Shown here one piece after another: positions 7,073-57,515 of a DNA stretch of 64,000 nucleotides (its first letter is position 1; each line of letters starts with the position of its first letter). The translations under genes and the position numbers were made by a program. The stretch covers positions 3,128-67,127 of the forward strand of contig CAKOMD010000002.1 in the NCBI GenBank assembly GCA_934096555.1. The letters are read 5' to 3'. This DNA comes from an uncultured Bacilli bacterium. GTDB taxonomy: Bacteria > Bacillota_I > Bacilli_A > RF39 > UBA660. The notes under the pieces were generated by a model, which saw only the letters and a list, made by a program, of their open reading frames with translations, had not been told where the DNA came from and did not search any database.

Positions 7073-7136
7073 CACTCTAAGCTTGTAATCTTAGAGTGTT
7101 CTTTTAAGCCTTATATTTCATTATAAGGTTTAAAAG
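7073..7136 (+). repeat. paired-hairpin intergenic element, locus 1
   Basis: CACTCTAAG-CTTGTAAT-CTTAGAGTG (7073-7098), then TT, then CTTTTAAGCCTTATA-TTTCAT-TATAAGGTTTAAAAG (7101-7136). It starts 17 nt after the stop codon at 7055. Confidence 0.8.
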
Positions 7137-7268
7137 AATGCCACAATATGCCTATCATATATAAGCCTAAACCATCAATTTAAAATTATTATTATTTCTT
7201 TAAAACATCTTGAAAAAATAATGATTTTATAGTACACTTAGTTATAGAGTATGGAGGCTAGATATTTC

Positions 7269-13083: not shown

Positions 13084-14235
13084 ATGAAGAAAATATTATC
13101 AAAATTAGATAAACCATTATTAATAGTAACAACTATCTTTTTTATTTTTGGTCTTATAATGATCCTTAGTGCTTCTTCAATGGAATCATATATGCGTTAT
13201 AATTATAGTCCATATCATTACTTTTTTAGACAGGCTATCTTTTTAGGAATAGGATTAATTGCCTTTCTCTTTGTAATTATCTTTCCTACTAAGAATTATA
13301 AGAAGCTAGATAAAGTACTACTAGGGGCAATTATATTGGCCTTAGTAGGTTTAATATTTTATGGTCATGTGGCTAATCAAGCTGTTAGCTGGTATAAAAT
13401 AGGACCTTTTGCCATTCAGCCATCTGAGTTTGCTAAAATAATAATAATAATCTATCTAGCAGTTTATTACTCTAAAAATAAAGACAAACTAGACAATCAG
13501 TGGAATATAATAAAACCAATGATATTTATAGTCATAATAGCAGTATTGGTAGCATTACAACCAGATATGGGAACTGCTACTATAATAGGATTAATAGCCC
13601 TTGCTATGTTCTATGCTGCCCCTATGGAGAAAAAGAGTAGGAGTATCTTTAACAAAATAATTATTGGTGGAATTCTCTTAGTAATATTAGTACTAGTAGT
13701 AGCAGGGGGTAAGTTTCTTCAGTCATATCAGTTAGATCGTTTTAATTATTTTAATCCGTGTGATAGGTATCAAGAAAAGACAGGTTATCAGTTATGTAAT
13801 AGCTTTATAGCTTTTAAAAATGGTAGTATAAAAGGCCAAGGCCTTGGTAATTCTACTCAAAAATATTTATATTTACCAGAATCATATACCGACTTTATCT
13901 TTCCTATCATTGTAGAAGAATGGGGGTTAATCGTTGGTATTCTTATAATCTTAGTATATATGTTTGTTCTATTTAGAATAATTCAAATAGCCAGAAGAGC
14001 TAGTAATTTAAAGAATAGTCTTATTTGTTATGGCGTATTTATTTATTTTCTTCTTCACATAATGGTAAATTTACTCGGAGTAACAGGAGTAATACCATTA
14101 ACAGGAGTACCACTTCCATTCTTATCCTATGGAGGCTCATATACAATATGTCTTATGATTGCTTTAGGATTAGTCCAAAGAGTATCAATAGAAACTAATA
14201 TACAAAAACAAAAAGAATTAAAAAAATTATCATAA
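13084..14235 (+). CDS. SEDS family peptidoglycan polymerase (FtsW/RodA/SpoVE)
   Basis: 383 aa, ~10 TM helices, with QPSEFAK, PDMGTA and LPFLSYGGS motifs. It lies directly upstream of ftsA-ftsZ. Confidence 0.9.
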   Translation: MKKILSKLDKPLLIVTTIFFIFGLIMILSASSMESYMRYNYSPYHYFFRQAIFLGIGLIAFLFVIIFPTKNYKKLDKVLLGAIILALVGLIFYGHVANQAVSWYKIGPFAIQPSEFAKIIIIIYLAVYYSKNKDKLDNQWNIIKPMIFIVIIAVLVALQPDMGTATIIGLIALAMFYAAPMEKKSRSIFNKIIIGGILLVILVLVVAGGKFLQSYQLDRFNYFNPCDRYQEKTGYQLCNSFIAFKNGSIKGQGLGNSTQKYLYLPESYTDFIFPIIVEEWGLIVGILIILVYMFVLFRIIQIARRASNLKNSLICYGVFIYFLLHIMVNLLGVTGVIPLTGVPLPFLSYGGSYTICLMIALGLVQRVSIETNIQKQKELKKLS

Positions 14236-14283
14236 CATAGACCTTAGGCTATGTTATGCCTCTTAAGACTTCGGCTTAAGAGG
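14231..14283 (+). repeat. paired-hairpin intergenic element, locus 2 (inverse orientation)
   Basis: CATAACATAG-ACCTTAGG-CTATGTTATG (14231-14258) is directly followed by CCTCTTAAG-ACTTCGG-CTTAAGAGG (14259-14283). The first hairpin overlaps the SEDS stop codon. Confidence 0.8.
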
Positions 14284-28615: not shown

Positions 28616-28630
28616 TATTTATTATATGTT

Positions 28631-28688
28631 CACTCTAAGCCTCAGGTCTTAGAGTGTTATTTCGAGCCTAATTTTAGTCTCGAAATAA
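28631..28688 (+). repeat. paired-hairpin intergenic element, locus 3
   Basis: CACTCTAAG-CCTCAGGT-CTTAGAGTG (28631-56) is directly followed by TTATTTCGAG-CCTAATTTTAGT-CTCGAAATAA (28657-88). It starts 15 nt after the rnc stop. Confidence 0.85.
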
Positions 28689-28709
28689 AATCTATTATAT
28701 ATAAGCCAG

Positions 28710-37976: not shown

Positions 37977-38040
37977 AGAAGAATAGTAAAGTTCTTCTTT
38001 TATTATTTGTAGTACAAGCAAACAAATGTATGAAAACATA

Positions 38041-38069
38041 TTGACATTAATAATTCTATATGATATATT
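38041..38069 (+). promoter_or_regulatory. promoter upstream of the uvrB leader
   Basis: TTGACA (38041-46), 17-nt spacer ending TGA, TATATT (38064-69). Confidence 0.5.
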
Positions 38070-38143
38070 AAATTAGCAGTAAGAAATAAGTCTACATATT
38101 AAATTAATATTAGGTATATAGTATCTGCTTATATATAATAGAC

Positions 38144-38210
38144 TCTATATTAAGACTTAGAATAAGACTTAATATAGCAGTGTGAGACTTAATTTATTAA
38201 GGCTCAAACT
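38144..38210 (+). repeat. paired-hairpin intergenic element, locus 7 (inverse orientation, degenerate)
   Basis: CTATATTAAG-ACTTAGAATAAGA-CTTAATATAG (38144-76) is directly followed by CAGTGTGAG-ACTTAATTTATTAAGG-CTCAAACTG (38177-210). Confidence 0.65.
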
Positions 38211-38278
38211 GAATAAAAATAATATATTGTTTAATATTAATATTTATGATAAAATACATAAAGAAGTGGGTGATAACT

Positions 38279-38377
38279 ATGTTTGAACTAATATCAAAAT
38301 ATAAACCAGCTGGTGATCAGCCTGAAGCCATAAAAGAATTAGTAGATGGTATAAAGGAAGGAAAAGGAGTAGCATAA
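38279..38377 (+). pseudogene. duplicated 5' fragment of uvrB (32 codons), now a leader ORF abutting rhuM
   Basis: [32 protein letters not shown] matches the first 27 residues of the real UvrB at 39463 except for one change. Its TAA (38375-77) directly abuts the ATG of the RhuM-family gene. Confidence 0.85.
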
Positions 38378-42720: not shown

Positions 42721-43797
42721 ATGAAGAATTTTAGAAATATGGCAATAATATTACTCGTAGTATTTACTACTGTAATACTTGCTTTAGGGGTATATTATAA
42801 AGTAAATATGGCTGGTACATCTAGTTCTGATACTAAGAAGATAGTAAATATTGAAGAGGGTACTATTAATGATATAGCAAAGACTTTAAAAGATAATAAT
42901 CTTATTAAGAATGTATCTATATTTAAAGTATATATAAAACTAACTAATAAGACTAATCTAAAAGCAGGCACTTATGAATTATCTGAAAATATGGGCGTTG
43001 AAAAGATTGTGAAGATCCTTGAAGAAGGTACTAAGTATAATCCTAATGAGATATCTATTACTTTTAAAGAGGGAATTAATATAAGAAAGATAGCTACATT
43101 AATTAGTGAAAGTACTAATAATAGTTATGACGATGTCATAAAGAAAGCATCTGACGAAACATTTATAGATACTTTAATAGATAAGTACTGGTTTTTGACT
43201 GAGGATATTAAAAATAAGAATATTTATTATAGCTTAGAGGGGTATTTATTTCCTGATACTTATAGATTTAATAATAGGGAAGTAACTACTGAGGAAATAT
43301 TTACTAAGATGTTAGATGAAATGGATAAGAAATTATCTAAATATAAAGATGAAATTAATAAGAGTGATTTAAGCATACATGAGATAATTACTTTGGCCTC
43401 TATTGTTGAGTTAGAAGGGGCTAAAGCTACTGATCGAAAGGGAGTAGCAGGCGTCTTTTATAACAGACTTGCTAGCAGTGCTTATCCTACTTTAGGTAGT
43501 GATGCTACTACTTATTATGCATCAAAGATCGACGATTGGAGTTATAGTTTAACTTATAAAGAACTTAATGACTGCAAGAACAAATACAATACTAGATGTA
43601 GTAGTAATACTGGTCTTCCGGTAGGACCAATATGTAATCCTGGTCTTGAATCTATTGAGGCTACGATTAATCCAGATAAACATGAATATTATTACTTTGT
43701 TGCAGATTGTAATGGTAAAGTATACTTAACTAAGAATAGTACTGAACATAATAATATAATTAATAAATTAAAAAAAGAGAATAACTGGTGTGCTTAA
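42721..43797 (+). CDS. mltG: endolytic murein transglycosylase MltG (YceG-like)
   Basis: N-terminal TM helix. LEGYLFPDTY, ASIVELEG, VFYNRL, LGSDATTYY and NTR...GLPVGPICNPG are present. Confidence 0.9.
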   Translation: MKNFRNMAIILLVVFTTVILALGVYYKVNMAGTSSSDTKKIVNIEEGTINDIAKTLKDNNLIKNVSIFKVYIKLTNKTNLKAGTYELSENMGVEKIVKILEEGTKYNPNEISITFKEGINIRKIATLISESTNNSYDDVIKKASDETFIDTLIDKYWFLTEDIKNKNIYYSLEGYLFPDTYRFNNREVTTEEIFTKMLDEMDKKLSKYKDEINKSDLSIHEIITLASIVELEGAKATDRKGVAGVFYNRLASSAYPTLGSDATTYYASKIDDWSYSLTYKELNDCKNKYNTRCSSNTGLPVGPICNPGLESIEATINPDKHEYYYFVADCNGKVYLTKNSTEHNNIINKLKKENNWCA

Positions 43798-43816
43798 GTT
43801 ATTCTTCTTTTATTTT

Positions 43817-43870
43817 CCCCTTAAGCCTATAGTCTTGCGGGGCATTATGAAGCCTAGGGTCTTCATAATG
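43817..43870 (+). repeat. paired-hairpin intergenic element, locus 4
   Basis: CCCCTTAAG-CCTATAGT-CTTGCGGGG (43817-42, two imperfect stem pairs) is directly followed by CATTATGAAG-CCTAGGGT-CTTCATAATG (43843-70). It starts 19 nt after the mltG stop. Confidence 0.8.
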
Positions 43871-43926: not shown

Positions 43927-45069
43927 ATGGGTAACGAATTATCAAAAGAGCAATTAGAACAAATGATAACTATATTTAATTATAAATATGCTAAAGCAAA
44001 TACTAAGTCTAAAAAGAAATTAATAGCTAGCGATCTAATTCTATTATCGTCAATGTGCGAAAAGTACTTTTCTAATTTTGAATTTGATATATCCTGGAAT
44101 AATGACAATACCCTATGTTGTGATGCAATATTAGCTTATTGTAAATTTATAACAAATGCTTCAGGCAATCGAGAAAAGTACTTAAAAATATTTAAGTCTT
44201 CACTAAAACAAATATTAAGTACAAGTCCTAAATTTTATAAGTACTATGGTAAAACATATTCAAGACATTCCACGGCGGATTTAGAAGAAATATTTTGTGA
44301 CTTTTTAAATACATTTAGTCCTAAATTATGTAATGAATATAGAAGTATGAGAGATAAGGGGAATATTTTTGCTGTATCAACTGACGAAGATTATACTGGT
44401 GAAAATTATGCGTTTTCAACTTTAAACGATACCATGATATTACTAGACGAAACTTTAGATGATAGTATAGAACTATATACCGTATTAAGTCATGAACTTG
44501 GTCATAGTTATGAAGCAAAACTATACTTAAATAATCATAAAATGCGTGACTATGATAAAATAATGAATAGTCCATTTTATGAAGTATCGTCAATCTTTTT
44601 AGAATATGCTTATATTAATTATCTTATAGAAAACAATATATACAGGGAAGAAAATAATATGCTTTTACATGGTTATATAATAGATTTATTAACAGATAGT
44701 CTATATGCAGTAGCAATACTTAGAAATCCTAGTATTATAGATGATGTTGACGACGAAATGATAATCAGTATTGAAAAAAGTAAGTATTATCTAGAGAGTA
44801 TTCAAAGAGATTATAATATGCATATTATTCCTGAGGATAATAAAGTATCATTAAGCGATACACTTATATATGGTTTTGGTAAGTTATTTAGTATCTATAT
44901 GTATGAAAATTATAAGAAGGATCCTAAATATTTTATGAAAGAATTTAATAAAGCACTATTAGATTATTCGCTTACTGAAGATATGTCTTCATTTGCTAGA
45001 GTAGGAGTGTCTTATAATAAAATAAAGAAAGGCGATGCCTTAAAAAGAGTACTAACTAAAATTAATTAG
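43927..45069 (+). CDS. putative gluzincin-type (M3-like) metallopeptidase
   Basis: VLSHELGHSYE (HExxH at 44491-44505), with a downstream FYEVSSIFLE that could supply the third ligand. 380 aa, cytoplasmic-looking. Confidence 0.5.
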   Translation: MGNELSKEQLEQMITIFNYKYAKANTKSKKKLIASDLILLSSMCEKYFSNFEFDISWNNDNTLCCDAILAYCKFITNASGNREKYLKIFKSSLKQILSTSPKFYKYYGKTYSRHSTADLEEIFCDFLNTFSPKLCNEYRSMRDKGNIFAVSTDEDYTGENYAFSTLNDTMILLDETLDDSIELYTVLSHELGHSYEAKLYLNNHKMRDYDKIMNSPFYEVSSIFLEYAYINYLIENNIYREENNMLLHGYIIDLLTDSLYAVAILRNPSIIDDVDDEMIISIEKSKYYLESIQRDYNMHIIPEDNKVSLSDTLIYGFGKLFSIYMYENYKKDPKYFMKEFNKALLDYSLTEDMSSFARVGVSYNKIKKGDALKRVLTKIN

Positions 45070-46416: not shown

Positions 46417-46632
46417 TTAGTCTTTTACTCCTTCAAGTATTTTTAAGTAAATAGGAGCATTAATAATCAAATTATTAGATTTAATAGCTTCAGTAATAAT
46501 TTCTATTTTAGTTTGATAATCAATATTTTCATACCAACCTATTGGAAATAAATCCTCTTCATTAATATTCTTAAAATGATCTTTATATGCTAGTTCCGCT
46601 AATGTATATAATTCAAATAATTTATCTTCCAT
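46417..46632 (-). CDS. small hypothetical protein (71 aa) overlapping the end of the upstream large gene
   Basis: The ATG is preceded by GAAAGG. It overlaps the 3' end of the 46599..49166 gene by 34 nt. Acidic, with no TM segment. Confidence 0.45.
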   Translation of the reverse strand: MEDKLFELYTLAELAYKDHFKNINEEDLFPIGWYENIDYQTKIEIITEAIKSNNLIINAPIYLKILEGVKD

Positions 46633-49166
46633 ATTCTATTTACCTTTCTTGATTTACCTATTTCTAATTTTTCAGTATCTAGTTTGATTATTTCGTTATA
46701 GTAGAACTTACTTATCATGTTATATACATCAGAACCCACAATACTTTTAAGTAAAGATAGATATTCTTCAGCATCTTTTGACTTAGATATTAAAGCAAAG
46801 TTAGCAATCATTTCACAAAAACCATTATCCGTTTCATAGTAGTAGTAGATTCCATGACCAGGAGCCCATTTAATTTTTTTATTTTTGGCATTATATAGAG
46901 CTCCGCTATGAAACTTACCATCAAATATAGCATCTAATATATCACATATAGCATATAATTCACCATAGTTACTTCGCATCATTGCATCAACATTTTGACT
47001 AATATATATTCTCTTTTGATGATTAATATATTCTTCTTCAGTATACATTTTATTTAAAATTATATCCATTTGCTCTTCAGGTATTTTAAGTACTTCAAAT
47101 TCTCTTTTTTTCTCTTCTTTACTTTTCTCAAGCATAGTTCTTATTTCAGACTTTTTCTCTTCACTATAATAGGTATCAAAATAGCTTTCACATTTCTTTT
47201 TAATAAACGCTGCAATTTGTTTATATAATTTTCTGTAGTTATTAGCGCATAATTCCGCTCTTGCTATTAGATTTGGATCTTCTTTGACTTTTCTAATTAT
47301 TTTATTATAGTCTTCAGGTATTTTATCTTTAGCTATATAGTAGTGTAGTGCATGACCTGTTTCATGTAGAAGTGCACTAACAGATGTACTATTACAAAAC
47401 ACAGACTTACAATTTGCTGAAAAATAACAATTATCATTATCTTCCATATAAAAGAATTTATTTCTATTTTGTTTTTTTATCTCAATTAGAGTTCTTATTT
47501 CAGCTACTACAGCCTCATAATTATATCCTGCTACAAGGGCAGTTCTATAGCCATTTACTAAAGCTGCAATTAATTTTGAACTACTCATATTATCGTCAAA
47601 GACATCATTAAGCTCTCTAAGTAGTTCTTCACCTTCACTATATAGAGGTCCAATACCTAAATGATTACTAACATTTTTAAGATAATCAGAAGCAAAGTTT
47701 TTCTTTTCTTTAGAAACATTAATATCCTTTTGTTCAAACCCTTTAGTTTTTATAATAAAGGCTACTCTAGGATCGGCTTTTACATCACCGGTAATAATTT
47801 TACTTAGAGCAAGACTAGAGCTGGCTTCAAGTAGAGATTCTAATAAAGTTTTATTATCATATCTTTTTAATAGTTTATCTTCAGAAAGTCTATCAACATA
47901 TTCTATCATATCATGCTCTGCTAATGTGATATAAAACCTAGTGGCTGTATTAATATCATTTAAATGAACTGCTATATCATTAATGTTAACTCTTACTATT
48001 TCATATTTAACATTATCTAAAATATAATCAAAATAAGTATAACTATCATTTTTATTAATAGGCTTTAAGAGTTTTTTAGGGCTTATGACCGCTAGTAAAT
48101 CAGGTCTTTCTTTTTTTAATAATATTTTAATTATTTCTTCATCACTACATAAGAAAAGACATTTCTTTAAATTAAAATTAATATCAATTAGATATTCTAA
48201 GAAAGTTTCTTCTTTATCTATTGATTTAATTACTTCTGAAACATTTCTAAGTAAAATATCATTAGAAATATAGCCTATAAGATCTAGTTTTTGGTAGCGG
48301 TATAATATATCTATTGTTTTAATATTACGAATATAAGTAAAATTAATAGTGCATTCTTTTTCAATAAGAATTTCAAGTAATGTTTTATTTGGTTCTACTT
48401 CCATTAATAAGACTGCTTCACTAACTTTCCCAAGATAATCATAATAATTATTCATCATAAGAAATTTAATAAATTTAATATCATTGGGAATACTAGTAAG
48501 AGCCTTGGGAATTATCTTTTTATCATTGATAAGAAAATCTAAAACAGTACTATTTTCCTTAGTCCTACTCATTAAAATAGCAGTATTTGCATATTCCATT
48601 AAGTGATAATTATTATACTTAGTACATAATTCATTTAGTGGTTCCTTATTATCAATCATAGGGACAATAATATTTAATATACTATCATCATTTAAGTATT
48701 TTTCAATTAAATAAGTACCATTACTGTTTCTAGTAGTTAATTTCTTTACTAGTTCAGGATTGATATAATTTAAAGCAAATTTCATATTATACTGTGATAG
48801 TAAATCAATTATTTCAGTATGTTCTTTGATAGCATAAATAATATTATCAGATAAAAGATTATTTCTATTTAAAATATAATCAATAATTCTTTTGCCATTG
48901 ACATAAGAAAATAGTGTTTCTTCGTCTAATTTATAAGAGTATAAAGATGCATTGTTTTTACAAAATAAATAGGCGATAAGAGCATCGTTAGCTATTATAT
49001 TTTCTAATGAATATAATGGTATGTTATTTCTTAAAAGATATTCTATAAAATAAGTACCATTACTATCTTTACTTAGAAGTTCTTCTTTTGTTAAGTTAAG
49101 TCCGTATATATGCCATCTAGTACCATCGTTAATTTCTTTTAAAATATTTAGTAACTTTTCAGACAT
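46599..49166 (-). CDS. large repeat protein (ankyrin-like ~45-55 aa units) with C-terminal HExxH metallopeptidase-like domain
   Basis: At least 8 degenerate units carry a (D/N)xNG(T/K)(Y/L)(F/L)(I/L)E(Y/I)LL-type core (NGTYFIEYLL, NGKRIIDYIL, NGTYLIEKYL, STVLDFLI, KTLLEILI, ETFLEYLI, YTYFDYIL, KTLLESLL). LLHETGHALH follows (HETGH at 47352-47366 on the + strand). The start is placed at ATG 49166 (MSEKLLN). Confidence 0.6.
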   Translation of the reverse strand: MSEKLLNILKEINDGTRWHIYGLNLTKEELLSKDSNGTYFIEYLLRNNIPLYSLENIIANDALIAYLFCKNNASLYSYKLDEETLFSYVNGKRIIDYILNRNNLLSDNIIYAIKEHTEIIDLLSQYNMKFALNYINPELVKKLTTRNSNGTYLIEKYLNDDSILNIIVPMIDNKEPLNELCTKYNNYHLMEYANTAILMSRTKENSTVLDFLINDKKIIPKALTSIPNDIKFIKFLMMNNYYDYLGKVSEAVLLMEVEPNKTLLEILIEKECTINFTYIRNIKTIDILYRYQKLDLIGYISNDILLRNVSEVIKSIDKEETFLEYLIDINFNLKKCLFLCSDEEIIKILLKKERPDLLAVISPKKLLKPINKNDSYTYFDYILDNVKYEIVRVNINDIAVHLNDINTATRFYITLAEHDMIEYVDRLSEDKLLKRYDNKTLLESLLEASSSLALSKIITGDVKADPRVAFIIKTKGFEQKDINVSKEKKNFASDYLKNVSNHLGIGPLYSEGEELLRELNDVFDDNMSSSKLIAALVNGYRTALVAGYNYEAVVAEIRTLIEIKKQNRNKFFYMEDNDNCYFSANCKSVFCNSTSVSALLHETGHALHYYIAKDKIPEDYNKIIRKVKEDPNLIARAELCANNYRKLYKQIAAFIKKKCESYFDTYYSEEKKSEIRTMLEKSKEEKKREFEVLKIPEEQMDIILNKMYTEEEYINHQKRIYISQNVDAMMRSNYGELYAICDILDAIFDGKFHSGALYNAKNKKIKWAPGHGIYYYYETDNGFCEMIANFALISKSKDAEEYLSLLKSIVGSDVYNMISKFYYNEIIKLDTEKLEIGKSRKVNRIWKINYLNYIH

Positions 49167-49273
49167 ATATAAATGCACCTTTCTTTCTAAACTATAATAA
49201 CATATTTAAAGTATTTAGTAAATAATTTTGTATATTTTCTACCAGCTCGTTTAATACTATTAGTGGTGATTAT

Positions 49274-49715: not shown

Positions 49716-50711
49716 ATGACAACTAAATATAATAATGTTTTTATTGAGGATGCTTATACAGTGTGTGGCAATTATGAGAATGATGGACCATTATCAAAAT
49801 ATTTTGATAAGAAACATAAGAAAGATTTATACTTTGGTGAAAAGTCTTGGGAGAAGGCTGAAGTCCATCTTTTAAAAGAGGCTAATGAAAACATTCTAAA
49901 AAAGAATAAACTAAAAGAACAAGATATTGATCTTTTAATATCAGGAGATTTACAGAATCAGATAGCGGCTTCTGACTATATGGCTAGAGACTTTGATATA
50001 CCTTTTCTTGGGATATTTGAAGCTTGCTCGACAAGTAGTGAAGGGTTAATTATTGGAAGTAATTTTATTGAAGGAAAGCTATGTAAAAGAGTACTAGTAT
50101 CAACATCTAGTCACAACATGGTTAGTGAAAAACAGTTTAGAAATCCTACTGAATATGGTACTCCTAAACCAAAGACTGCTACTTTTACTGCTACTGGGGC
50201 TGTATCAATACTGCTTACTAATAAGAAAACTAAAATTAAAATAGAGTCTTCAACAATAGGGAAGGTAGTAGATATGGGAACTACTGATGCTAATCATATG
50301 GGAGCAGTAATGGCTCCAGCAGCAGGAGATGTTATATATAATCATTTGACTGATACTAAAAGAGATACATCTTATTATGACTTAATATTAACTGGAGATT
50401 TAGGAGTATATGGTAAAGAAATACTAAGAGAATATATGCTTACTAAGTATAATATAGAACTAGGAGATAATTATAATGACTGTGGTACTATGTTATATGA
50501 TATAGGGCATCAGCCTGTCTTTGCCGGAGGTTCTGGACCAGTATGTTCGGGTTTAGTTAATTTTGGCTATATATATAAAGAAATGTTAAAGGGTAAGTTT
50601 AAGAGGGTATTAATAGTACCAACAGGAGCCATCTTCTCACCGACATTTACTTTTCAAAAAGAATCAATACCTGCGATAGCAAACTGTGTTAGTTTGGAGG
50701 TAGTAGAATGA
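49716..50711 (+). CDS. spoVAD: stage V sporulation protein AD
   Basis: 331 aa, thiolase-like fold, with EACSTS (Cys), ...TATGA... and GGSGPVCS. Its position between spoVAC and spoVAE fits. Confidence 0.9.
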   Translation: MTTKYNNVFIEDAYTVCGNYENDGPLSKYFDKKHKKDLYFGEKSWEKAEVHLLKEANENILKKNKLKEQDIDLLISGDLQNQIAASDYMARDFDIPFLGIFEACSTSSEGLIIGSNFIEGKLCKRVLVSTSSHNMVSEKQFRNPTEYGTPKPKTATFTATGAVSILLTNKKTKIKIESSTIGKVVDMGTTDANHMGAVMAPAAGDVIYNHLTDTKRDTSYYDLILTGDLGVYGKEILREYMLTKYNIELGDNYNDCGTMLYDIGHQPVFAGGSGPVCSGLVNFGYIYKEMLKGKFKRVLIVPTGAIFSPTFTFQKESIPAIANCVSLEVVE

Positions 50712-51061
50712 TGACTTATGTTTATGCTTTTCTATTTTGCGGCTTTGTCTGTATGATGGCTCAGCTTATTCTAGATAACACAAAGCTTACTCCAGGCCAT
50801 GTAACGAGTATCTTTGTTGTAGTAGGAGCCTTACTTGATGTAGCGGGTATATATGATAGAATAGTCTTGTATGCTGGAGCGGGAGCTTTAATTCCTATTA
50901 CTTCATTCGGTCATCTACTAATTCATGGAGCTATGGAAACAGGAACTGCTTTAGGACCGTTAGGACTTGCCTTTGGTATATTTGATTTAACATCTGCTGG
51001 TATATCAGTAGCCTTATTTTTATCATTTATCTTAGCTTTAATATTTAAACCTAGACATTAA
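50708..51061 (+). CDS. spoVAE: stage V sporulation protein AE (AEB type)
   Basis: 117 aa, membrane protein, with ...TPGHV...GAGALIPITSFGH.... It overlaps the spoVAD stop. Confidence 0.85.
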   Translation: MMTYVYAFLFCGFVCMMAQLILDNTKLTPGHVTSIFVVVGALLDVAGIYDRIVLYAGAGALIPITSFGHLLIHGAMETGTALGPLGLAFGIFDLTSAGISVALFLSFILALIFKPRH

Positions 51062-51076
51062 TTAATTTATTATATT

Positions 51077-51136
51077 CCTCTTAAGCCGACGGTCTTAAGA
51101 GGCAAAAGGAAGCCTTAAATATAAGTCTTCCTTTTG
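51077..51136 (+). repeat. paired-hairpin intergenic element, locus 5
   Basis: CCTCTTAAG-CCGACGGT-CTTAAGAGG (51077-102) is directly followed by CAAAAGGAAG-CCTTAAATATAAGT-CTTCCTTTTG (51103-36), then TTTTATTTATT. It lies between convergent genes. Confidence 0.85.
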
Positions 51137-51138
51137 TT

Positions 51139-53367
51139 TTATTTATTATTTATAACACTATTTAAAAGATTGCCAAGATATGTATTACCATCTCTATTCA
51201 AATGAATATTATCAGGAGCCAAATAATTAAGATTTTTTATTTCACTATAGATATTAATATATTTAACATTATCCTCATCAAATATAATCTTACTAAGTTT
51301 TTTATCAGTAGAAATAATATAAATATTATGACCATTACATAACTTAATTAAACTATCATATTCTTTCTTGCTAATATTTATAGTATTATCAAATAAAAAT
51401 ACAACATTATGATTAAGAGTATTATCTTTAATCTCTTTTTTAATTTCTTTTTTCAAATTATTATAATTAAAATCTTTATCAGTTATATAATTAGCATTAG
51501 TAAAATTAGTTTTAATATTATCAAAAGCATTGAGTAGTAAATCATTACCATAGAAGCTAACTTTATTTCTAATTTCCTCTTCGTGCTTATTAATCATACT
51601 ATTTTTCTTTTCAATATATTTTTCTTTATAAACATTATATATGGCATTATAAATAGTATCTGTATATATCTTTCTACCTTCACTAGTTAAATGAATACCA
51701 TCATATGCAAAGTATTCACTATGGCCTCTTGAAATAGAATACCAGTCAATAATATGTAGGTTAGAGTGAGACAAAGCTAAATTATTCAATCTGACATTAA
51801 CATCAGGTAAATTAACGGTATTAATCCAAAATATATCTCTGTCTTCACAAGTTCTAAGTATTTCTTCTTTACACTCCAGAGAACAGTCACCATTAGTTCC
51901 CAAATTAAATACTACTGGACTACCAAGTGTATTTTTATTTTTTAAGTCTAATAAAATATCATTAACATACCAAGCTGTACGTGATACCTTACCATCAAAG
52001 TAGCCATTAGGAAATCTATTATATAGGTTACTAACCGCTCCAAGAAGTACTGAGTCGCCAATTCCTACTACAGGTAGATTAGTAACTATCTCATCTAATT
52101 TGCTTTCGTCTTCTTCAATAGAGGCCAGTTCTTTTTCCCAAGTTTCTTTATCTTCCTTTAATTTGAGTGCATAATTATCTTTACTATCTTTAATTAATAT
52201 TTCATTTTCTTCAAGCTGTTTCTTTAAATCATTTATATCGTTAGTATAATCTTTAGCTATAATAAATTCATATATGCCATACAATAATATCCATAAGCAC
52301 ATAAATGATAATAGGCATTTCATATTATGTTTCTTTTTATCTTTATTCGTAGTCATAAAGTGTAATAGTATTGATAAAAGTATTGTAATTATAATAATCA
52401 AAAATAACTCTAAATATCTATTCCAATCTATATGTTCAAATAAATAAATTATCACATACTCTATTAAATATATTTCATAACTAATACTTGAAATATAACT
52501 TATAACATTATCAAGTTTAGTAGTATTAGCCCAATTATTAATCATTAAAGTAGCATATTCAGTAATTCTTACACCGAGTAGGGTAGTAATAATCATACTT
52601 AAATAAATATATTTAGAACCAGGACTAATAAAAATACATAATAGTAACAAAATTACTAAGTAAGCATAAAAAATATATTTCTTTAAATTAGAATCTTTAA
52701 TTTTAGAAGGAACTAAATTCCCATAGTAATGATGTATAAATCCAAGTGTCACACCAGAAAATAAAGCAAACATTCTAGTAAAAGTATTATAATAAGTAAA
52801 CAAAATATCATTATTTATTCCAGAGTAATAAAAATAAGCTCCTCCTAGCAAAGAAACAACCGAAGTAATTATAATAGGAATATTTTTATTAATTTTACTT
52901 CCTATCTTTTTTAGTAGGAGAAAGATAAAAGGAAATACTAAATCAAATTGTATTAATATAGCCATATACCATAGATGTATAAATGGCGTTTCCGAGGCAC
53001 TCCTGAAATAATCCATATTAGTCATAATTTGCCAAAAATTATTATACCCCAGCACAATTGAAGTTACCTCAGGTTTCAAATTAAACCAGTTAACATTCAG
53101 TAAAAGTTTAACAATTCCAACTGAAGTAAATACCACAATTAACATTGGTAAATATAATCTAAATAATTTATTTAAATAATATTCTTTAAAAGATATCTTA
53201 TCTTTTTTAAAAAGTTTTATCGTAGAGAGATATCCACTTAGAACAAAAAAGATCGATACCGCTAAAAAACCGCCCTTTAGTATATTTAAATGATATAAGA
53301 ATATTGTTATACAAGCAAATATTCTAAGAATATCAAGATATTTAAAATGTTTATTATTACTACTCAT
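51139..53367 (-). CDS. acyltransferase-3 family membrane protein fused to SGNH-like domain (OatA-like O-acetyltransferase)
   Basis: N-terminal ~340 aa with ~10 TM helices (FKYLDILRIFACITIFLYH...). A coiled linker follows, then VVGIGDSVLLG and ...DGIHLTSEGR... SGNH-type blocks, plus an extra C-terminal domain. Confidence 0.8.
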   Translation of the reverse strand: MSSNNKHFKYLDILRIFACITIFLYHLNILKGGFLAVSIFFVLSGYLSTIKLFKKDKISFKEYYLNKLFRLYLPMLIVVFTSVGIVKLLLNVNWFNLKPEVTSIVLGYNNFWQIMTNMDYFRSASETPFIHLWYMAILIQFDLVFPFIFLLLKKIGSKINKNIPIIITSVVSLLGGAYFYYSGINNDILFTYYNTFTRMFALFSGVTLGFIHHYYGNLVPSKIKDSNLKKYIFYAYLVILLLLCIFISPGSKYIYLSMIITTLLGVRITEYATLMINNWANTTKLDNVISYISSISYEIYLIEYVIIYLFEHIDWNRYLELFLIIIITILLSILLHFMTTNKDKKKHNMKCLLSFMCLWILLYGIYEFIIAKDYTNDINDLKKQLEENEILIKDSKDNYALKLKEDKETWEKELASIEEDESKLDEIVTNLPVVGIGDSVLLGAVSNLYNRFPNGYFDGKVSRTAWYVNDILLDLKNKNTLGSPVVFNLGTNGDCSLECKEEILRTCEDRDIFWINTVNLPDVNVRLNNLALSHSNLHIIDWYSISRGHSEYFAYDGIHLTSEGRKIYTDTIYNAIYNVYKEKYIEKKNSMINKHEEEIRNKVSFYGNDLLLNAFDNIKTNFTNANYITDKDFNYNNLKKEIKKEIKDNTLNHNVVFLFDNTINISKKEYDSLIKLCNGHNIYIISTDKKLSKIIFDEDNVKYINIYSEIKNLNYLAPDNIHLNRDGNTYLGNLLNSVINNK

Positions 53368-53482
53368 ATTATTACCTCTAACTATTATAAATAAATTATA
53401 TCATGAAGAAATATAAAGATAAATATTAAAAAGTAAAATAGTTTATAATTTCTAGTTTAATGTGTAAAATAAATATTTTTAA

Positions 53483-53511
53483 TTGACAAAGTAATAAAAA
53501 TATACTACAAT
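53483..53511 (+). promoter_or_regulatory. promoter of the helD-like gene
   Basis: TTGACA (53483-88), 17-nt spacer, TACAAT (53506-11). Confidence 0.5.
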
Positions 53512-53551
53512 GAAATAGACATTTGCGAAGTAACTATTTTCATCTTAATGT

Positions 53552-53580
53552 AAAACTACAATGAGAATGTAGTTTTTTGT
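53552..53580 (+). promoter_or_regulatory. terminator-like hairpin in the helD leader (possible attenuator)
   Basis: AAAACTACA / TGTAGTTTT 9-bp stem, 7-nt loop, then TTGT. It lies between the promoter and the RBS (GAAGGAGGG). Confidence 0.4.
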
Positions 53581-53599
53581 CGTGAAGGAGGGAGATATT

Positions 53600-55600
53600 A
53601 TGAAAATTGAAAGAGAAGAATTTGAAAAAGAAAGAAACTATCTTAACAAGACGGTCAGCTTAATTAGGAAGAAAATTTCTAATTTAGGACAAGAACTATT
53701 TGATGACGATTCTAAGGTACTAGAGTTTAAAAAATTTATTTGGGATTCCCATGCCGAAATGGATCCAAATGAAATGCGTACAATGATGGCAGAATCCGAT
53801 CTTCAAGTATCAATTATGCAAGGTAAAGGAAACTATCTTCAGAGATTGTTTAGAATTCAAGATAAACCATATTTTGGTTCTATTAGATTTAAAGACGAAG
53901 ATGGCGAAGAAAACATCTATATTGGTATAACCCATGTTGAAGATAAACTTAACTATTATGTTCATGACTGGAGAAGTCCAATATGCAGTATGTTCTATGA
54001 TTATGAAACAGGACCCGCTAGTTACAAGGCTCCTAGTGGAATAATAAAAGGGGAAATAACAAGAAAAAGACAGTATATAATAGAAAATGCCGAATTAAAA
54101 CACATTTTTGATAATGACTTAAATATTAGTGATAGTCTTCTTCAAGAAGTATTAGCAGAAGAATCTTCAGATAAAATGAAAAATATTGTTAATACTATTC
54201 AAGAAGAACAGAACAAAGTAATAAGAAATACTGAAGACAAAAATCTTATTGTGGAAGGTATTGCTGGTTCAGGTAAAACAAGCGTAGCCTTACATAGAAT
54301 AGCCTTCTTATTATATAGAATACCAAACTTAACATCCTCAAATATCGTAGTATTTACTCCTAATAAAGTGTTTTCAGAGTATATATCTAATGTTTTACCA
54401 GAACTTGGTGAAGATAATACTTATGATATGACCTTCTACGACTTATTGTGTCAGAATATTAATGAATATAAAGATATTGAAAATTTCACTGATTTTATAT
54501 CAAGATATTATAAAAAAGAAGTAACAAATTATGATTTAGTTAAGTATAAACAATCAGACGAAATAATTAAAGATCTAGATGATTATGTAAAAGATATATT
54601 AAATAATATTAGTTTTACTAAAAATTTAGAGTTTGATGGTTTTATTGATATTAGTACTGAAGAATTAAATAAAATGTTAACTTATAAATATAGTAATTTT
54701 CCTTTATTTGAAAGAATAAAAGAAATGAGTGAAAAGATAGCTTATAATAATTATGATGGAAATACTAAAAATGCTAGAAGCATTGAAAAGATATTAAAAG
54801 AAAACTTAAATATTAAATTAGATCTAAAAGTTATATTTAATAATTTCTTTACTAGTAAATATGCTAAGTATAAAGATAAAATTGATGGTAATTATTTATA
54901 TTATGAAGATGCATGTATATTCTTATATTTAAAGAGTCTACTAGTGGGATTTAATACTAATCATGTAATAAAGCAAGTTGTAATAGATGAAGCTCAAGAC
55001 TATAATAAATTACAATATATAATTATTAAGAAAACATTTAAAACAGCTAATTACACTATACTAGGTGATTCTAATCAAACAATAAACCCTTATTATAAAT
55101 ATGAATCATTAAAAGAATTAACAAATATGTTTGAAGGATCAAAGTATATTACTCTTACTAAGACATATCGTTCTACTGATAAGATAATAGATTATACCAA
55201 TAAGATATTAGGATTAACTTTATCAGTAGCTATTAGAAATCAAAAGTCTAACGATATAATCTTTAGAAACAATGTTAAAAAAGAAGATTTTATTAAAGAT
55301 ATAAATTATTTAAAAGAAATGTCTAAGAGTATAGCCATTATTACCAAGGATGATAAAGAAGCAGAAGAAGTATATAATATGTTAAAAGATGATTTTGATA
55401 TCATGTTACTTGGTGGTTATGGTCATATAAAGAGAGATTTAGTAGTAGTTCCTTCTTACACCGCTAAAGGGCTAGAATTTGATTCAGTAATCATTTATAA
55501 TGATATAGATAATAAGTATACTGAAGAAGATAAATATTTATACTATGTTGCTTGTACTAGAGCACAGCATAACTTAATTATATACAATGGAGAAGAGTAA
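53600..55600 (+). CDS. helD: HelD-like (helicase IV / UvrD-family) RNA polymerase-associated helicase
   Basis: N-terminal coiled region, PYFGSIRF block, Walker A GIAGSGKTSVALHRIAFLLY, DEAQDY, TKTYRST and AKGLEFDSVII are present. The start is placed at ATG 53600. Confidence 0.8.
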   Translation: MKIEREEFEKERNYLNKTVSLIRKKISNLGQELFDDDSKVLEFKKFIWDSHAEMDPNEMRTMMAESDLQVSIMQGKGNYLQRLFRIQDKPYFGSIRFKDEDGEENIYIGITHVEDKLNYYVHDWRSPICSMFYDYETGPASYKAPSGIIKGEITRKRQYIIENAELKHIFDNDLNISDSLLQEVLAEESSDKMKNIVNTIQEEQNKVIRNTEDKNLIVEGIAGSGKTSVALHRIAFLLYRIPNLTSSNIVVFTPNKVFSEYISNVLPELGEDNTYDMTFYDLLCQNINEYKDIENFTDFISRYYKKEVTNYDLVKYKQSDEIIKDLDDYVKDILNNISFTKNLEFDGFIDISTEELNKMLTYKYSNFPLFERIKEMSEKIAYNNYDGNTKNARSIEKILKENLNIKLDLKVIFNNFFTSKYAKYKDKIDGNYLYYEDACIFLYLKSLLVGFNTNHVIKQVVIDEAQDYNKLQYIIIKKTFKTANYTILGDSNQTINPYYKYESLKELTNMFEGSKYITLTKTYRSTDKIIDYTNKILGLTLSVAIRNQKSNDIIFRNNVKKEDFIKDINYLKEMSKSIAIITKDDKEAEEVYNMLKDDFDIMLLGGYGHIKRDLVVVPSYTAKGLEFDSVIIYNDIDNKYTEEDKYLYYVACTRAQHNLIIYNGEE

Positions 55601-55720: not shown

Positions 55721-56707
55721 ATGGGGAAAATTCTTAGTAGAATAAATAAAAGAGCAAAGTTAAAAGTATATAGAAAAGCTAGGGAAAACTATCTAAAAAG
55801 ATTCATTTGTGATATTGGTAAGATTACTGAAGAAGAAGATAGGATTATATGTTATGTTAAACAAAAACCGCTAAATAAATACAAAGGAAACGAAGAAACA
55901 TATAATATAAAACTTAATGGTATGGATTTAATAACTGAAGGTATTAAAGAAATAACTGAAGAGTTTAAATTAAATAAACCAGTATATTATATATTTGATG
56001 ATATTAAGTTTAATACTAGCTTAGAAATAACTTCTATAGGAGCCAATATAATATTTAGAAATTGTACTTTTGATAAGAATATAGATATTTGTTGTGGTAA
56101 CGAAATAACTTTTGAAAATAATAAATATGCTAGTAACTGTCAAGTATCGTATCTTGGCGATTGCTATTTTACTACAGGTATGGTAAGCAAAATAACATTT
56201 AAAAATGATAAATTTATAAATAATGGTAATTTAAATGAATATAATGGTTTATCTTTTGACATGAAAATAGATGCTAAATTAGTTGAATTTATAAATGCTG
56301 AAGTAGCCGCTGAAAGTACATCTATGATAAAAATTAAAGCCGAAAAGACAAGAATTGATAGTTCTATACTTAAAGCAAATAAAGTTTTTATAGATTCAAA
56401 AAGTATCGACTGTACTGATAGTTCAATAATTGCTCAAGATGTTGTAATTGAAAATGTCAAACATATTTTTGCAAGTACCAAGGGTGATTCACATGCCTTT
56501 TATTCAGAACGAAATTTAACCAGTAATATAAATAAAGTATCTAAAGAAAGTAAGGAAGAATTATCCTTAAAAGAAGCTAGACAAGAGCTAATTAAAAAGT
56601 TACAAAGTCTAAGTAATTATTGCCAGCAGATAAATGACGATAGACTTCAAAAAGATAGAGAAAAATATAATAATCAAACAATTGTTAAAACGTTAAAACT
56701 AAGATAA
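55721..56707 (+). CDS. hypothetical protein with beta-solenoid-like internal periodicity and C-terminal coiled coil
   Basis: 328 aa. Recurring short blocks (IIFRNCTF, ITFENNKY, ITFKNDKF, VEFINAEV, TRIDSSIL, VFIDSKSI, VVIENV) occur every ~15-25 residues. Good RBS (AAAGGAGAAG). Confidence 0.55.
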   Translation: MGKILSRINKRAKLKVYRKARENYLKRFICDIGKITEEEDRIICYVKQKPLNKYKGNEETYNIKLNGMDLITEGIKEITEEFKLNKPVYYIFDDIKFNTSLEITSIGANIIFRNCTFDKNIDICCGNEITFENNKYASNCQVSYLGDCYFTTGMVSKITFKNDKFINNGNLNEYNGLSFDMKIDAKLVEFINAEVAAESTSMIKIKAEKTRIDSSILKANKVFIDSKSIDCTDSSIIAQDVVIENVKHIFASTKGDSHAFYSERNLTSNINKVSKESKEELSLKEARQELIKKLQSLSNYCQQINDDRLQKDREKYNNQTIVKTLKLR

Positions 56708-56795: not shown

Positions 56796-57332
56796 ATGGG
56801 AAAAATAGAAAATCTTTTTATATTAAATAATGGTGCGTTTGATGGCGTATTATTTAGTACTGATAATTATAGTATTGAAAATAAATTAGAAGATTGTTTT
56901 TGTGTAGAAAACATGAGAACATGCACTAATCCTAAAATATATGTTACTGAAAAGAAAAATGGTGAGTGGGTTAGAACAATATATATTGATGGCTATGAAT
57001 CACTTATGGATTTTATTGCCAATAATAGATTAAGTATTATGTGTATAAGAGGCTTTGATAGAAAGACTATGAATCAATTTATATCAAAGCTTAATAAAAC
57101 AAAAGATACAAGTATTGTACCGATTAAATTTTCAAATGTTGCAGAGCAAGCAAAATACGAAAGACACTTAATTACTAAAAAATATAGAATGAAAAGGGTA
57201 CATCAAAAACTAGAAAGTATAAATGAAATTGCATCAGCAGAAGACTATATGAAAATGTTAAATAGTGCCTTTAACAAAGGAAAACATGAATCACGTAAAA
57301 AAATTATAAACCTAAAAAGAGACAGAAAATAA
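56796..57332 (+). CDS. hypothetical protein (178 aa, basic C-terminus)
   Basis: Good RBS (AAGGAGA). No family recognised. Confidence 0.55.
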   Translation: MGKIENLFILNNGAFDGVLFSTDNYSIENKLEDCFCVENMRTCTNPKIYVTEKKNGEWVRTIYIDGYESLMDFIANNRLSIMCIRGFDRKTMNQFISKLNKTKDTSIVPIKFSNVAEQAKYERHLITKKYRMKRVHQKLESINEIASAEDYMKMLNSAFNKGKHESRKKIINLKRDRK

Positions 57333-57339
57333 AAATTAA

Positions 57340-57392
57340 CAAGGAAGACCATAGGGCTTCCTTGTTTCTCTTAAGACTGCAGGCTTAAGAGA
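57340..57392 (+). repeat. paired-hairpin intergenic element, locus 6 (inverse orientation)
   Basis: CAAGGAAG-ACCATAGGG-CTTCCTTG (57340-64), TT, then TCTCTTAAG-ACTGCAGG-CTTAAGAGA (57367-92). Confidence 0.85.
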
Positions 57393-57396
57393 CAAT

Positions 57397-57425
57397 AAAA
57401 AAAAACTAACTCATTCATGAGTTAG
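57397..57425 (-). terminator. rho-independent terminator of tRNA-Met
   Basis: CTAACTCA / TGAGTTAG stem. The + strand A9 run (57397-405) becomes the T-tract on the minus strand, downstream of the tRNA. Confidence 0.6.
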
Positions 57426-57438
57426 TAGTAAACAATAT

Positions 57439-57515
57439 TGGTAGCGAGAGGGGGATTCGAACCCTCGACCCTTCGGGTATGAACCGAATGCTCTAGCCAA
57501 CTGAGCTATCTCGCC
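57439..57515 (-). tRNA. tRNA with CAT anticodon (elongator Met, or Ile2 if lysidine-modified)
   Basis: The reverse complement is GGCGAGATAGCTCAGTTGGCTAGAGCATTCGGTTCATACCCGAAGGGTCGAGGGTTCGAATCCCCCTCTCGCTACCA. It gives a 77-nt cloverleaf with anticodon loop TTCATAC and CCA encoded. One A:C mismatch in the T stem and a G1:U72 pair were noted. Confidence 0.85.

Follow-up and report, generated by a model that had tools for sequence, protein, structure and literature searches.

Dispersed double hairpins with a conserved C•T mismatch form an intergenic repeat family in a clade of uncultured gut Bacilli

Introduction

What are the paired hairpins that lie between the genes of an uncultured Bacilli bacterium of the GTDB lineage RF39 (UBA660)? 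The question was raised by positions 51077-51136 of a 64,000-nt stretch of its genome (assembly GCA_934096555.1, contig CAKOMD010000002.1, positions 3,128 to 67,127), which was analysed as a whole and is here called the window. An initial annotation, made from the letters of the sequence, described two abutting hairpins at this site, recognised the same arrangement at six other intergenic loci, and likened it to the repetitive extragenic palindromic (REP) sequences and bacterial interspersed mosaic elements (BIMEs) of proteobacteria. We find that the double hairpins, hereafter called modules, belong to a repeat family dispersed among the genomes of one clade, and we argue that they may be miniature mobile elements that have been retained behind genes.

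Some forty years of work on REP-type elements, nearly all of it in Proteobacteria, have explained only in part how these elements are mobilised and what they do for their hosts. REPs, the REP doublets forming hairpins (REPINs) and the hairpin elements derived from IS200/IS605 insertion sequences (palindrome-associated transposable elements, PATEs) are thought to move as folded single strands.

Results

The double-hairpin observation is confirmed, and the pattern is non-random. The claim of seven two-hairpin loci is borne out by their coordinates, by folding (each folds into an abutting pair of hairpins, at RNA z-scores between -2.8 and -7.9), and by a covariance model, R1, which was built from 39 non-identical modules and run over the window with filters off. 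This model recovered exactly the seven reported sites: those at 14231 (minus strand), 51077 (plus), 57338 (minus), 43817 (plus) and 28631 (plus) scored 63-71 bits, the one at 7073 (plus) 43 bits and the one at 38145 (minus) 38 bits. All other matches above 15 bits overlap the seven modules as antisense or partial hits, and elsewhere in the window nothing exceeded 15 bits. Ten hairpins of the window combine at least nine (nine or ten) perfect pairs with the CC..GT apex described below, whereas Markov shuffles gave a mean of 3.3 hairpins even with the threshold lowered to at least five pairs; among all perfect hairpins of the window, those of the modules are distinguished by their 9-10-bp stems and their common apex. 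All seven modules are intergenic in a window that is 88.6% coding, which has a probability of about 2.5e-7. A motif equally frequent in shuffled or in coding sequence had been named as the finding that would speak against the pattern; the opposite was found, with five matches to the sequence pattern of the first hairpin in the window against 0.52 expected, and none of 142 copies inside an open reading frame (ORF).

The module consists of a hairpin A followed by a hairpin B on one strand, and the two abut as first described, with a spacing of 0 nt in 93 of 97 cases. The main family is about 53-60 nt long, and a variant about 92 nt. Hairpin A is the near-invariant CCTCTTAAG-CC-N3-5-GT-CTTAAGAGG, with the close variants CCCCTTAAG, TCTCTTAAG and CACTCTAAG. 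The stem of hairpin B measures 10 bp and follows the form N-A-N6-A-G; next come CC-N3-15-GT and the complementary arm, and 80 of the 82 exact hairpin-A matches are directly followed by a B hairpin bearing the same apex. In the index module, which begins 15 nt past the stop codon of a spoVAE-like gene on the plus strand, hairpin A (51077..51102) reads CCTCTTAAG-CC-GACG-GT-CTTAAGAGG and hairpin B (51103..51136) reads CAAAAGGAAG-CC-TTAAATATAA-GT-CTTCCTTTTG, with TTTTATTTATT next; just beyond it, at 51139, lies the end of a convergent acyltransferase gene. In both hairpins, 5'-AGCC...GTCT-3' places a G-C pair below a C opposite a T, followed by a C-G pair and a small loop or extra stem. Where the loop ends in GG, fold programs favour an equivalent form with a bulged T. 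The conserved apex and its C:T mismatch hold throughout the family as they had been described in the window: among 104 distinct modules, C•T stands at this position in 97 A and 98 B hairpins, the remainder are nearly all T•T, and a Watson-Crick pair never occurs there.

Are the stems maintained as helices? Among 2175 stem positions of the 104 modules, which were found by the model with no requirement for perfect stems, 97.4% are Watson-Crick paired. Hairpin B occurs with 32 distinct stem sequences, and both sides change in 8 of 11 pairs. In the alignment of B stems that gave these numbers, 99.5% of the cells are paired, against 83% in shuffles; this alignment took in only B hairpins with perfect stems, so that its full pairing is partly by construction, and the unselected figures are those of the 104-module alignment. 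The initial annotation had stated that stems differ between loci with compensation, which is correct for hairpin B but not for hairpin A, where practically one sequence is found. G•T wobbles are not in excess over A•C in the stems (17 versus 12 cells), and a purely RNA-level constraint is therefore not favoured. The junction between A and B is kept clean, and extension of either helix is avoided: pairing between the nucleotide preceding A and the opening nucleotide of B would be possible in just 2 of 81 modules, where about 15 would be expected, and position +1, immediately 3' of B, is never occupied by C, the base that could pair with the final G of A. A closing helix between the 5' and 3' flanks, which would make a three-way junction, was rejected, since on inspection of the site listing it proved inconsistent among copies.

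To describe the genomic context, statistics were drawn from 81 non-redundant sites, and orientation relative to the upstream gene was scored for 78 of these. It is the same in 66 and opposite in 12; in the window, five of the seven copies share the orientation of the upstream gene. Both orientations occur, as had been noted, but that statement understates the 85% bias towards the sense strand of the upstream gene. Modules between divergent genes number only two. Thirty of the 81 modules begin no more than 20 nt past a stop codon, and about 60% of these have no other terminator before the next gene; 37 of the 81 begin 6-15 nt past a canonical terminator stem and its T-tract. The 5' flank is rich in T between -10 and -1, at a frequency of 0.54-0.77 for each position, and TAT closes this flank at 35 of 81 sites, with the tetranucleotides TTAT in 20 and ATAT in 14, and with a T/A junction in 54. 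This preference is a bias and not a fixed target. According to the site listing the T-rich flank is present in antisense copies as well, and the rule is thus more general than co-orientation with genes. On the other side of the module, the base at +1 after hairpin B is A in 89% and that at +2 in 70% of the sites, T is enriched only between +6 and +8, and 34 of 81 sites have four or more consecutive T within 12 nt of hairpin B. The A bias of the 3' flank and the frequent presence of separate terminators indicate that the modules are not canonical terminators, and that they usually stand beside one or replace it. The earlier view that they are not simply intrinsic terminators is supported by the A at +1 and +2 and by the lack of an immediate T-tract. 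Where gene direction and local GC skew are discordant, orientation follows the gene 5 to 1, although GC skew is confounded by gene strand and six such cases are too few to settle the question of the replication strand. The AAGAGG within hairpin A's 3' arm might suggest a Shine-Dalgarno or translational role; this was rejected on inspection, since no start codon follows it at a set spacing and the following gene lies at variable distances.

How widespread is the family? When the hairpin-A pattern was searched against one genome per species of the GTDB set, 77 loci were found, nearly all of them within about 15 genomes of one clade of uncultured human-gut Bacilli; the carriers include uncultured Tenericutes bacterium UMGS1185, UMGS610 and UMGS1661, Clostridium sp. 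CAG:302, Firmicutes bacterium CAG:321, and genomes labelled 'MAG: (uncultured) Bacilli bacterium', and one carrier genome is a complete 1.46-Mb chromosome. A match in Trichocoleus has no hairpin B and was set aside as a chance match, while a match in a 'Paludibacteraceae' bin does have hairpin B and is therefore probably a mis-binned contig. Over 8 kb, the window itself matches a UMGS1185 contig at 96.7% identity. Gut metagenomes contributed at least 120 loci, apparently from human-gut assemblies, as several contig names say. The further copies that had been predicted thus exist, in species genomes and in metagenomes alike. No exact hairpin-A match was present in viral contigs, and there is accordingly no sign of carriage by phages. 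Model R1 found 141 modules in 770 kb, and module density is about 1 per 9-20 kb; extrapolation (not a count) from the window density of 7 per 64 kb gives about 100-160 copies per 1.46-Mb genome. In Rfam, the whole window at the gathering threshold returned two tRNAs only, and the best hits around 51077 at permissive E-values reached at most 22 bits against thresholds of 40 or more. A full-text literature search for the hairpin-A sequence returned only unrelated primers and viral sequences. The family is apparently undescribed as far as Rfam, the searched literature and general knowledge go, which agrees with the earlier remark that no described equivalent was known.

If the modules are repeats, do they behave as discrete units? 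The clearest case is offered by an intergenic unit of about 190 nt, composed of a terminator-like hairpin, a T-tract, then TTGTGTTGTATTATATATAAGCC... and a promoter-like region. This unit recurs several times per genome between unrelated operons, with or without a module (L055:2037-2223 and 4007-4202; L149, L183, L146). Filled and empty paralogous units have flanks that are 93-98% identical and differ by exactly 59 nt, that is, a T plus the module. The empty site, in which ...TTTTTTTCTTTA is followed directly by AAAATATTTG, is the end of the terminator T-tract. Filled and empty copies co-occur on one contig, and the comparison recurs in contigs of three assemblies. In the alignment of filled with empty copies, the unit is bounded by the feet of hairpins A and B, and the only ambiguity at the junction is a 3-nt TTA. 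There is no general target-site duplication, a TA or TTA junction repeat being seen only where hairpin B ends in TA, and no terminal inverted repeats are found in the module or in the 92-nt variant, which we call family 2. The family-2 element at 28616-28707 sits between the rnc stop codon and the terminator in the window, and is absent in relatives with Rnc 90%, 83% and about 80% identical; in the closest of these (Rnc 90%) the terminator and the downstream promoter are conserved. Finally, identical A+B units occur at non-orthologous loci of single genomes, where flanks are unrelated and similarity stops at the feet of A and B, as at four sites of one genome that share both B = TATTTTATAG and the loop of B. 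These comparisons mark the module as a discrete unit that can be copied and that may be present or absent. Comparison of intergenic regions, which the initial annotation had proposed for orthologous ones, yielded discrete filled and empty cases of 59 nt (in paralogous units) and 92 nt. That the B stem is copied from the local flank was considered and rejected, the best match being 7.99 of 10 against 7.87 for control stems.

Once present, the modules persist. Orthologous comparisons with alignable flanks gave 1489 filled-filled and 24 filled-empty cases (332 and 3 in an earlier subset); the loci were picked by module presence, which biases the filled count upward, and modules outside this ascertainment show the same retention. 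Divergence between orthologues is 0.27 (A) and 0.13 (B) in the loops and 0.19-0.41 in the 3' flank, as against 0.039 (A) and 0.014 (B) in the stems and 0.03 (A) and 0.006 (B) in the apex. Distant orthologues retain the module even though the B stem has been largely rewritten with full compensation: behind yceG, for example, it is CATTATGAAG in the window and TAAATTGGAG in another species. Within a genome, distinct B stems number 15 among 18 sites (UMGS1185), and 7 of 7 in the window. The persistence at orthologous sites and the locus-specific B stems indicate that the family is old and that each copy is maintained. In one related species (L046:2-2586, compared with window positions 50673-55590), the gene for a 742-aa acyltransferase (window 51139-53367) is absent and the spoVAE module is retained, with a compensated C-G to T-A change at the base of its B stem.

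Discussion

What kind of element is copied as a unit, keeps two helices and a mismatch, and settles behind genes? The reading that we favour, to which we assign a probability of about one half, is that of a REP- or PATE-like miniature, non-autonomous mobile element, a double hairpin that would act as a folded single strand and be retained at gene 3' ends. A structure-specific enzyme would recognise the folded single strand, cut it at the feet of the two hairpins, and paste it 3' of a T-rich stretch, with no terminal inverted repeats or general target duplication being produced. The target would typically be the T-tract of a terminator or AT-rich DNA just past a stop codon, and insertion at this position relative to T-rich stretches would explain the sense-strand copies behind genes. 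In such an element the stem sequence of hairpin A is fixed, and hairpin B needs only its shape. Inserted copies are then kept for a long time under selection for both helices, the mismatch and the clean two-helix junction, likely because they provide the host with additional 3'-end structures (for back-up termination, protection of mRNA 3' ends or insulation), or because they serve as substrates of the same protein. What the data show is the repeat family with its structure and covariation, its strand asymmetry, its intergenic position at gene 3' ends, its discrete presence and absence and its long-term conservation; that single-stranded DNA is the form at work, that an enzyme handles it and that the host draws a function from it, we infer. 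Roles in RNA and in DNA can be compatible, since an element mobile as single-stranded DNA may be retained for its transcript or for its DNA.

Several observations weigh against this reading. Modules turn over very slowly and are for the most part ancient and orthologous, which fits a host cis-element as well as an active transposon, or better; the B stems are mostly locus-unique (15 of 18 in UMGS1185), unlike those of a recently amplified element. The best filled and empty case concerns paralogous units, and precise deletion is there formally indistinguishable from insertion. The 85% co-orientation and the terminator-less copies 3-19 nt past stop codons also fit a role at the RNA level, and a 5-to-1 precedence of gene direction over GC skew is unlike insertion directed purely by the replication strand. 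Lastly, a mobilising enzyme did not come to light. The initial annotation had suggested looking for a gene resembling the REP-associated tyrosine transposase (RAYT) or the TnpA of IS200/IS605, and none was seen: a single-sequence phmmer search with E. coli RayT and an approximate IS608 TnpA sequence as queries, against stop-to-stop ORFs of at least 50 aa and with E up to 10, found no Y1 (IS200/RAYT-type) ORF in 1.67 Mb of module-centred DNA (0.77 + 0.90 Mb). Such DNA should be enriched in RAYT genes, because a RAYT gene is usually flanked by its repeats. Moreover, no gene family recurs beside the modules, the largest cluster of neighbours having six members and consisting of ordinary genes, and a search of 1.7 Mb brought up no full-length insertion sequence whose ends match. 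Recurring stretches of 0.5-4 kb that might have been insertion sequences were also examined; the top candidates turned out to be conserved spoVA operon blocks with variable flanks.

Could the modules work as RNA instead? The main competing explanation, which we hold to be possible but at odds well short of even, makes them host RNA cis-elements of 3' untranslated regions, co-transcribed with the upstream gene. Their C•U or bulged-U hairpins would be bound by a clade-specific RNA-binding protein or ribonuclease, or would block 3' exonucleases or assist termination, and copies would spread rarely, by recombination. This agrees with the orientation of 66 of 78 copies, with the 30 of 81 that lie within 20 nt of a stop codon (about 60% of those with no other terminator), with the stable folds predicted, with the T enrichment at +6 to +8 after hairpin B, with long-term purifying selection on stems and apex at orthologous sites, and with gene direction prevailing over GC skew in five of six discordant cases. 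It accounts poorly for the 37 of 81 copies just past a terminator and T-tract, where little transcription is expected, and for the 12 of 78 that are antisense to the upstream gene, some of them, such as the copy between ftsW and ftsA, conserved across species. G•U pairs are not in excess over A•C (17 versus 12), no Rfam family matches, and the discrete, sharp-edged presence and absence together with identical units at unrelated loci need copying at the DNA level anyway. A simpler proposal would be that the modules are ordinary intrinsic (Rho-independent) terminators in tandem, with an apex common to all through shared descent from a few terminators. Their position at gene 3' ends, their predominant co-orientation, the T-run directly after some B hairpins (for example TTTTATTTATT at 51137) and the run of at least four T within 12 nt in 34 of 81 would be expected of terminators. 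However, terminators neither need nor show an invariant 26-nt sequence and mismatch across more than 100 loci and about 15 species; A occupies +1 (89%) and +2 (70%), with the T enrichment 5-8 nt off the stem, hairpin A is followed by hairpin B rather than by T, many modules lie directly behind a separate canonical terminator, and many ordinary terminators of the window do without the AGCC..GTCT apex. As the sole explanation, terminators are already contradicted, and we give the proposal very little credence.

Equally improbable in our estimation is an explanation that does without hairpin formation, in which the modules are double-stranded inverted-repeat sites for a dimeric nucleoid or regulatory protein. 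Hairpin A is indeed a fixed inverted repeat with a 4-nt spacer and the palindrome CTTAAG, and about a hundred sites per genome at gene ends would resemble the sites of some nucleoid proteins. Yet hairpin B keeps its self-complementarity while its sequence changes, which is the signature of intra-strand pairing, the conserved C/T asymmetry of the half-sites is unexpected for a symmetric dimer, and the junction bases avoid lengthening either helix. The AT-rich 5' flank, which often ends in a TATAT resembling a -10 box and is followed by two stable hairpins, might also suggest small RNA genes with their own promoter. A transcript beginning 6-8 nt past a box of this kind, though, would start within the 5' arm of hairpin A, and there is no conserved -35 element and no consistent terminator 3' of hairpin B; half of the flanks are nothing more than terminator T-tracts. 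We consider small RNA genes the least probable explanation of all.

How does the favoured mobile element compare with known systems? Likenesses to REP, BIME and REPIN sequences are numerous: both are short, imperfect extragenic palindromes in tens to hundreds of lineage-specific copies, both favour gene 3' ends and are rare between divergent genes, in both a conserved unpaired base gives the hairpin a strand identity, and both are inherited vertically and persist for long, with several possible host roles such as termination and mRNA protection. The current view of REPs is likewise a dual one, of elements mobile as single-stranded DNA and retained for a role at gene ends, as set out in PMC3733652. 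According to the same source, REP palindromes carry a conserved GTAG or CGTC tetranucleotide at one end. The modules have no such tag at the hairpin foot; hairpin A begins with CCTC, TCTC or CACT, and GTAG occurs in modules only by chance, within the variable loop TGTA-GT of some copies. The hairpins of a module stand in direct tandem, 0 nt apart and with CC..GT on the same strand, whereas those of BIMEs and REPINs are typically inverted pairs, the second hairpin of the module conserves its structure only, and no RAYT gene was found in the 1.67 Mb. The host, moreover, is a low-GC member of the Bacilli, for which the REP/RAYT surveys searched (PMC3733652, PMC6006769) name no such systems: a text search of PMC3733652 finds no mention of Firmicutes among REP hosts, and in PMC6006769 genes of the TnpA_REP class are described as sparse, occurring mainly in Cyanobacteria, Bacteroidetes and several classes of Proteobacteria, while 35 Mollicute genomes yielded no Y1 homologue. 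The likeness to REP and BIME elements seen at the outset therefore holds for dispersed, extragenic, strand-asymmetric imperfect palindromes, and fails for the direct tandem and the missing GTAG or CGTC, with no RAYT gene seen in the 1.67 Mb; as two defining REP features are lacking, we do not file the module as a REP, although it would be REP-like in its working.

The IS200/IS605 elements and PATEs share with the module an imperfect hairpin at each end, the lack of terminal inverted repeats and of target duplication, strand specificity, insertion beside a short AT- or T-rich target, and an unpaired T in the hairpin as a recognition feature; family 2, with 15 nt outside A and about 19 nt outside B, recalls the offset cleavage sites of IS608-type elements. 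Unlike a PATE, the main family consists of two hairpins only and ends at their feet, the stems of A and B are unrelated, and the target is loose (TAT in 43% of copies), whereas PATEs insert behind one defined tetra- or pentanucleotide of one strand; neither a tnpA or tnpB partner nor a full-length insertion sequence ending in modules turned up in 1.7 Mb. Class C group II introns are about 2 kb long retroelements or ribozyme fragments, and they insert preferentially right after intrinsic terminators on the transcribed strand. The module resembles them in its insertion site, but it has no intron domains and no Rfam match. With integron attC sites it shares structure kept over sequence, extrahelical bases that set the strand and, in the favoured reading, recognition as a folded single strand, but not the R and L core sites (GTTRRRY), as the hairpin feet read CCTCTTAAG and NANNNNNRAG; modules are single and dispersed behind housekeeping genes, with no cassette arrays. 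Intrinsic terminators have in common with it the 3' end of the transcription unit and the sense strand (66 of 78), and differ in that hairpin B is followed by A and not by a U-tract, and hairpin A by hairpin B.

It is tempting to speculate that the module is the substrate or tag of a structure-specific protein, of neither Y1 nor RAYT type, that would read the C•T helix tip of a folded single strand. Such a domesticated partnership of element and host, marking about a hundred transcription-unit ends in a gut Bacilli lineage of reduced genome size, would parallel REP and RAYT but be of independent origin; we put this forward tentatively, as rather unlikely in its full form. The family offers an independent, compact (about 55 nt) REP-like example in a small-genome, low-GC, uncultured gut lineage; neither its layout nor its occurrence in such a bacterial lineage has been reported for elements of this type. 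Its recognition features are unusually clear: one invariant hairpin, one structure-only hairpin and one invariant pyrimidine mismatch. Given these features, the presence and absence of modules and no visible RAYT, the family could reveal a new mobilising enzyme or a new use of folded strands at gene ends. The covariance model can also serve as a clade marker in metagenomes, and keeps annotators from calling these sites terminators or small RNAs.

Other modules of the window and additional observations

The window carries spoVA genes, rnc, ftsW and ftsA and the str operon, at a G+C content of 24-34% along its length. Besides the index module, the main family is represented by three modules. The one at 43817..43870 on the plus strand (A = CCCCTTAAG..CTTGCGGGG, B = CATTATGAAG) lies 3' of a yceG/mltG-like gene, with a terminator-like hairpin and T-tract at 43778-43805 immediately 5' of it. 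The module at 14231..14283 on the minus strand is antisense to both neighbours, an ftsW-like and an ftsA-like gene, and its minus-strand 5' flank is T-rich. The stop codon of the ftsW-like gene (TAA, 14233-14235) is inside hairpin B, so that the element provides the end of this reading frame, an arrangement kept in several species (L038, L080, L081). The third, at 57338..57392 on the minus strand, has the same orientation as the tRNA-Met gene (57439-57515, minus strand) and begins 12 nt past the stem of the tRNA-Met terminator hairpin (57405-57426) with its T-tract. In some strains the znuA and ribosomal-protein region past tRNA-Met appears to be replaced by small unknown genes and a phage-type integrase (L002:16847-20354, L005:13727-15482), which suggests an integration hot spot at or near tRNA-Met. 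The module beside tRNA-Met is kept in both versions.

In the window, family 2 comprises the loci 7073, 28631 and 38145. Its hairpin A is of the CACTCTAAG type and its hairpin B of the TTATTTSGAG type; about 15 nt precede A, and B is followed by a spacer and a conserved TAT[TC]ATATATAAG(CC) motif. The 92-nt element at 28616..28707 (plus strand) is made up of TATTTATTATATGTT, hairpins A' (CACTCTAAG type) and B' at 28631-28688, and AATCTATTATATATAAGCC. Two degenerate modules complete the family in the window. The element at 7073..7167 (plus strand), 3' of a CDP-alcohol phosphatidyltransferase gene, contains the module of 43 bits (7073-7138) and a TATCATATATAAGCC motif at 7153-7167, and that at 38126..38211 (minus strand), adjoining a RhuM-family gene, contains the module of 38 bits (38145-38211) and a TATTATATATAAGCA motif at 38126-38140. 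This most degenerate module is flanked by the RhuM-family/Bro-N gene (38378-39403) and by an ORF with no Pfam match (37317-37976), and the region 37317-39403 looks like an accessory island. The 13-mer TAT[TC]ATATATAAG, often with CC next, occurs 36 times in 1.7 Mb (for example L012:3935, L129:825, L146:5752); by inspection, about 35 of the 36 lie 4-25 nt 3' of a module on the same strand or in an empty copy of the 190-nt unit. Because it is also present in the module-less copy, the 13-mer cannot simply be counted as a piece of the main element; it might be the end of an element, a promoter fragment or a separate protein site.

A third sub-family, with hairpin A = TYTTTGAAG, was seen at three loci (L023:379-434, L041:1464-1518, L042:85-139). 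It is preceded by unusually G+C-rich sequence rather than by a T-rich flank, and this sequence may belong to the 3' end of a structured RNA so far unrecognised; an Rfam scan of these loci at the gathering threshold found nothing. In the hairpin B of L028:1859-1911, the 5' arm is that of one sub-family (CACAATAGAG) and the 3' arm that of another (CTATGTTATG), with pairing lost, which looks like recombination or conversion between two modules.

Six sizeable ORFs of the window have no Pfam match (E up to 0.001): 7251-8801, 37317-37976, 43927-45069, 46599-49178, 55721-56707 and 56796-57332. Four of them directly adjoin modules, which may be a coincidence, as no neighbour family recurs across loci. 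An identical 24-nt hairpin, ACAAGTT-AAAAGTATGA-AACTTGT, is found at 17243-17266 and 19081-19104, within two neighbouring ORFs of similar size (17082-18107 and 18920-19933), and is probably due to a tandem gene duplication.

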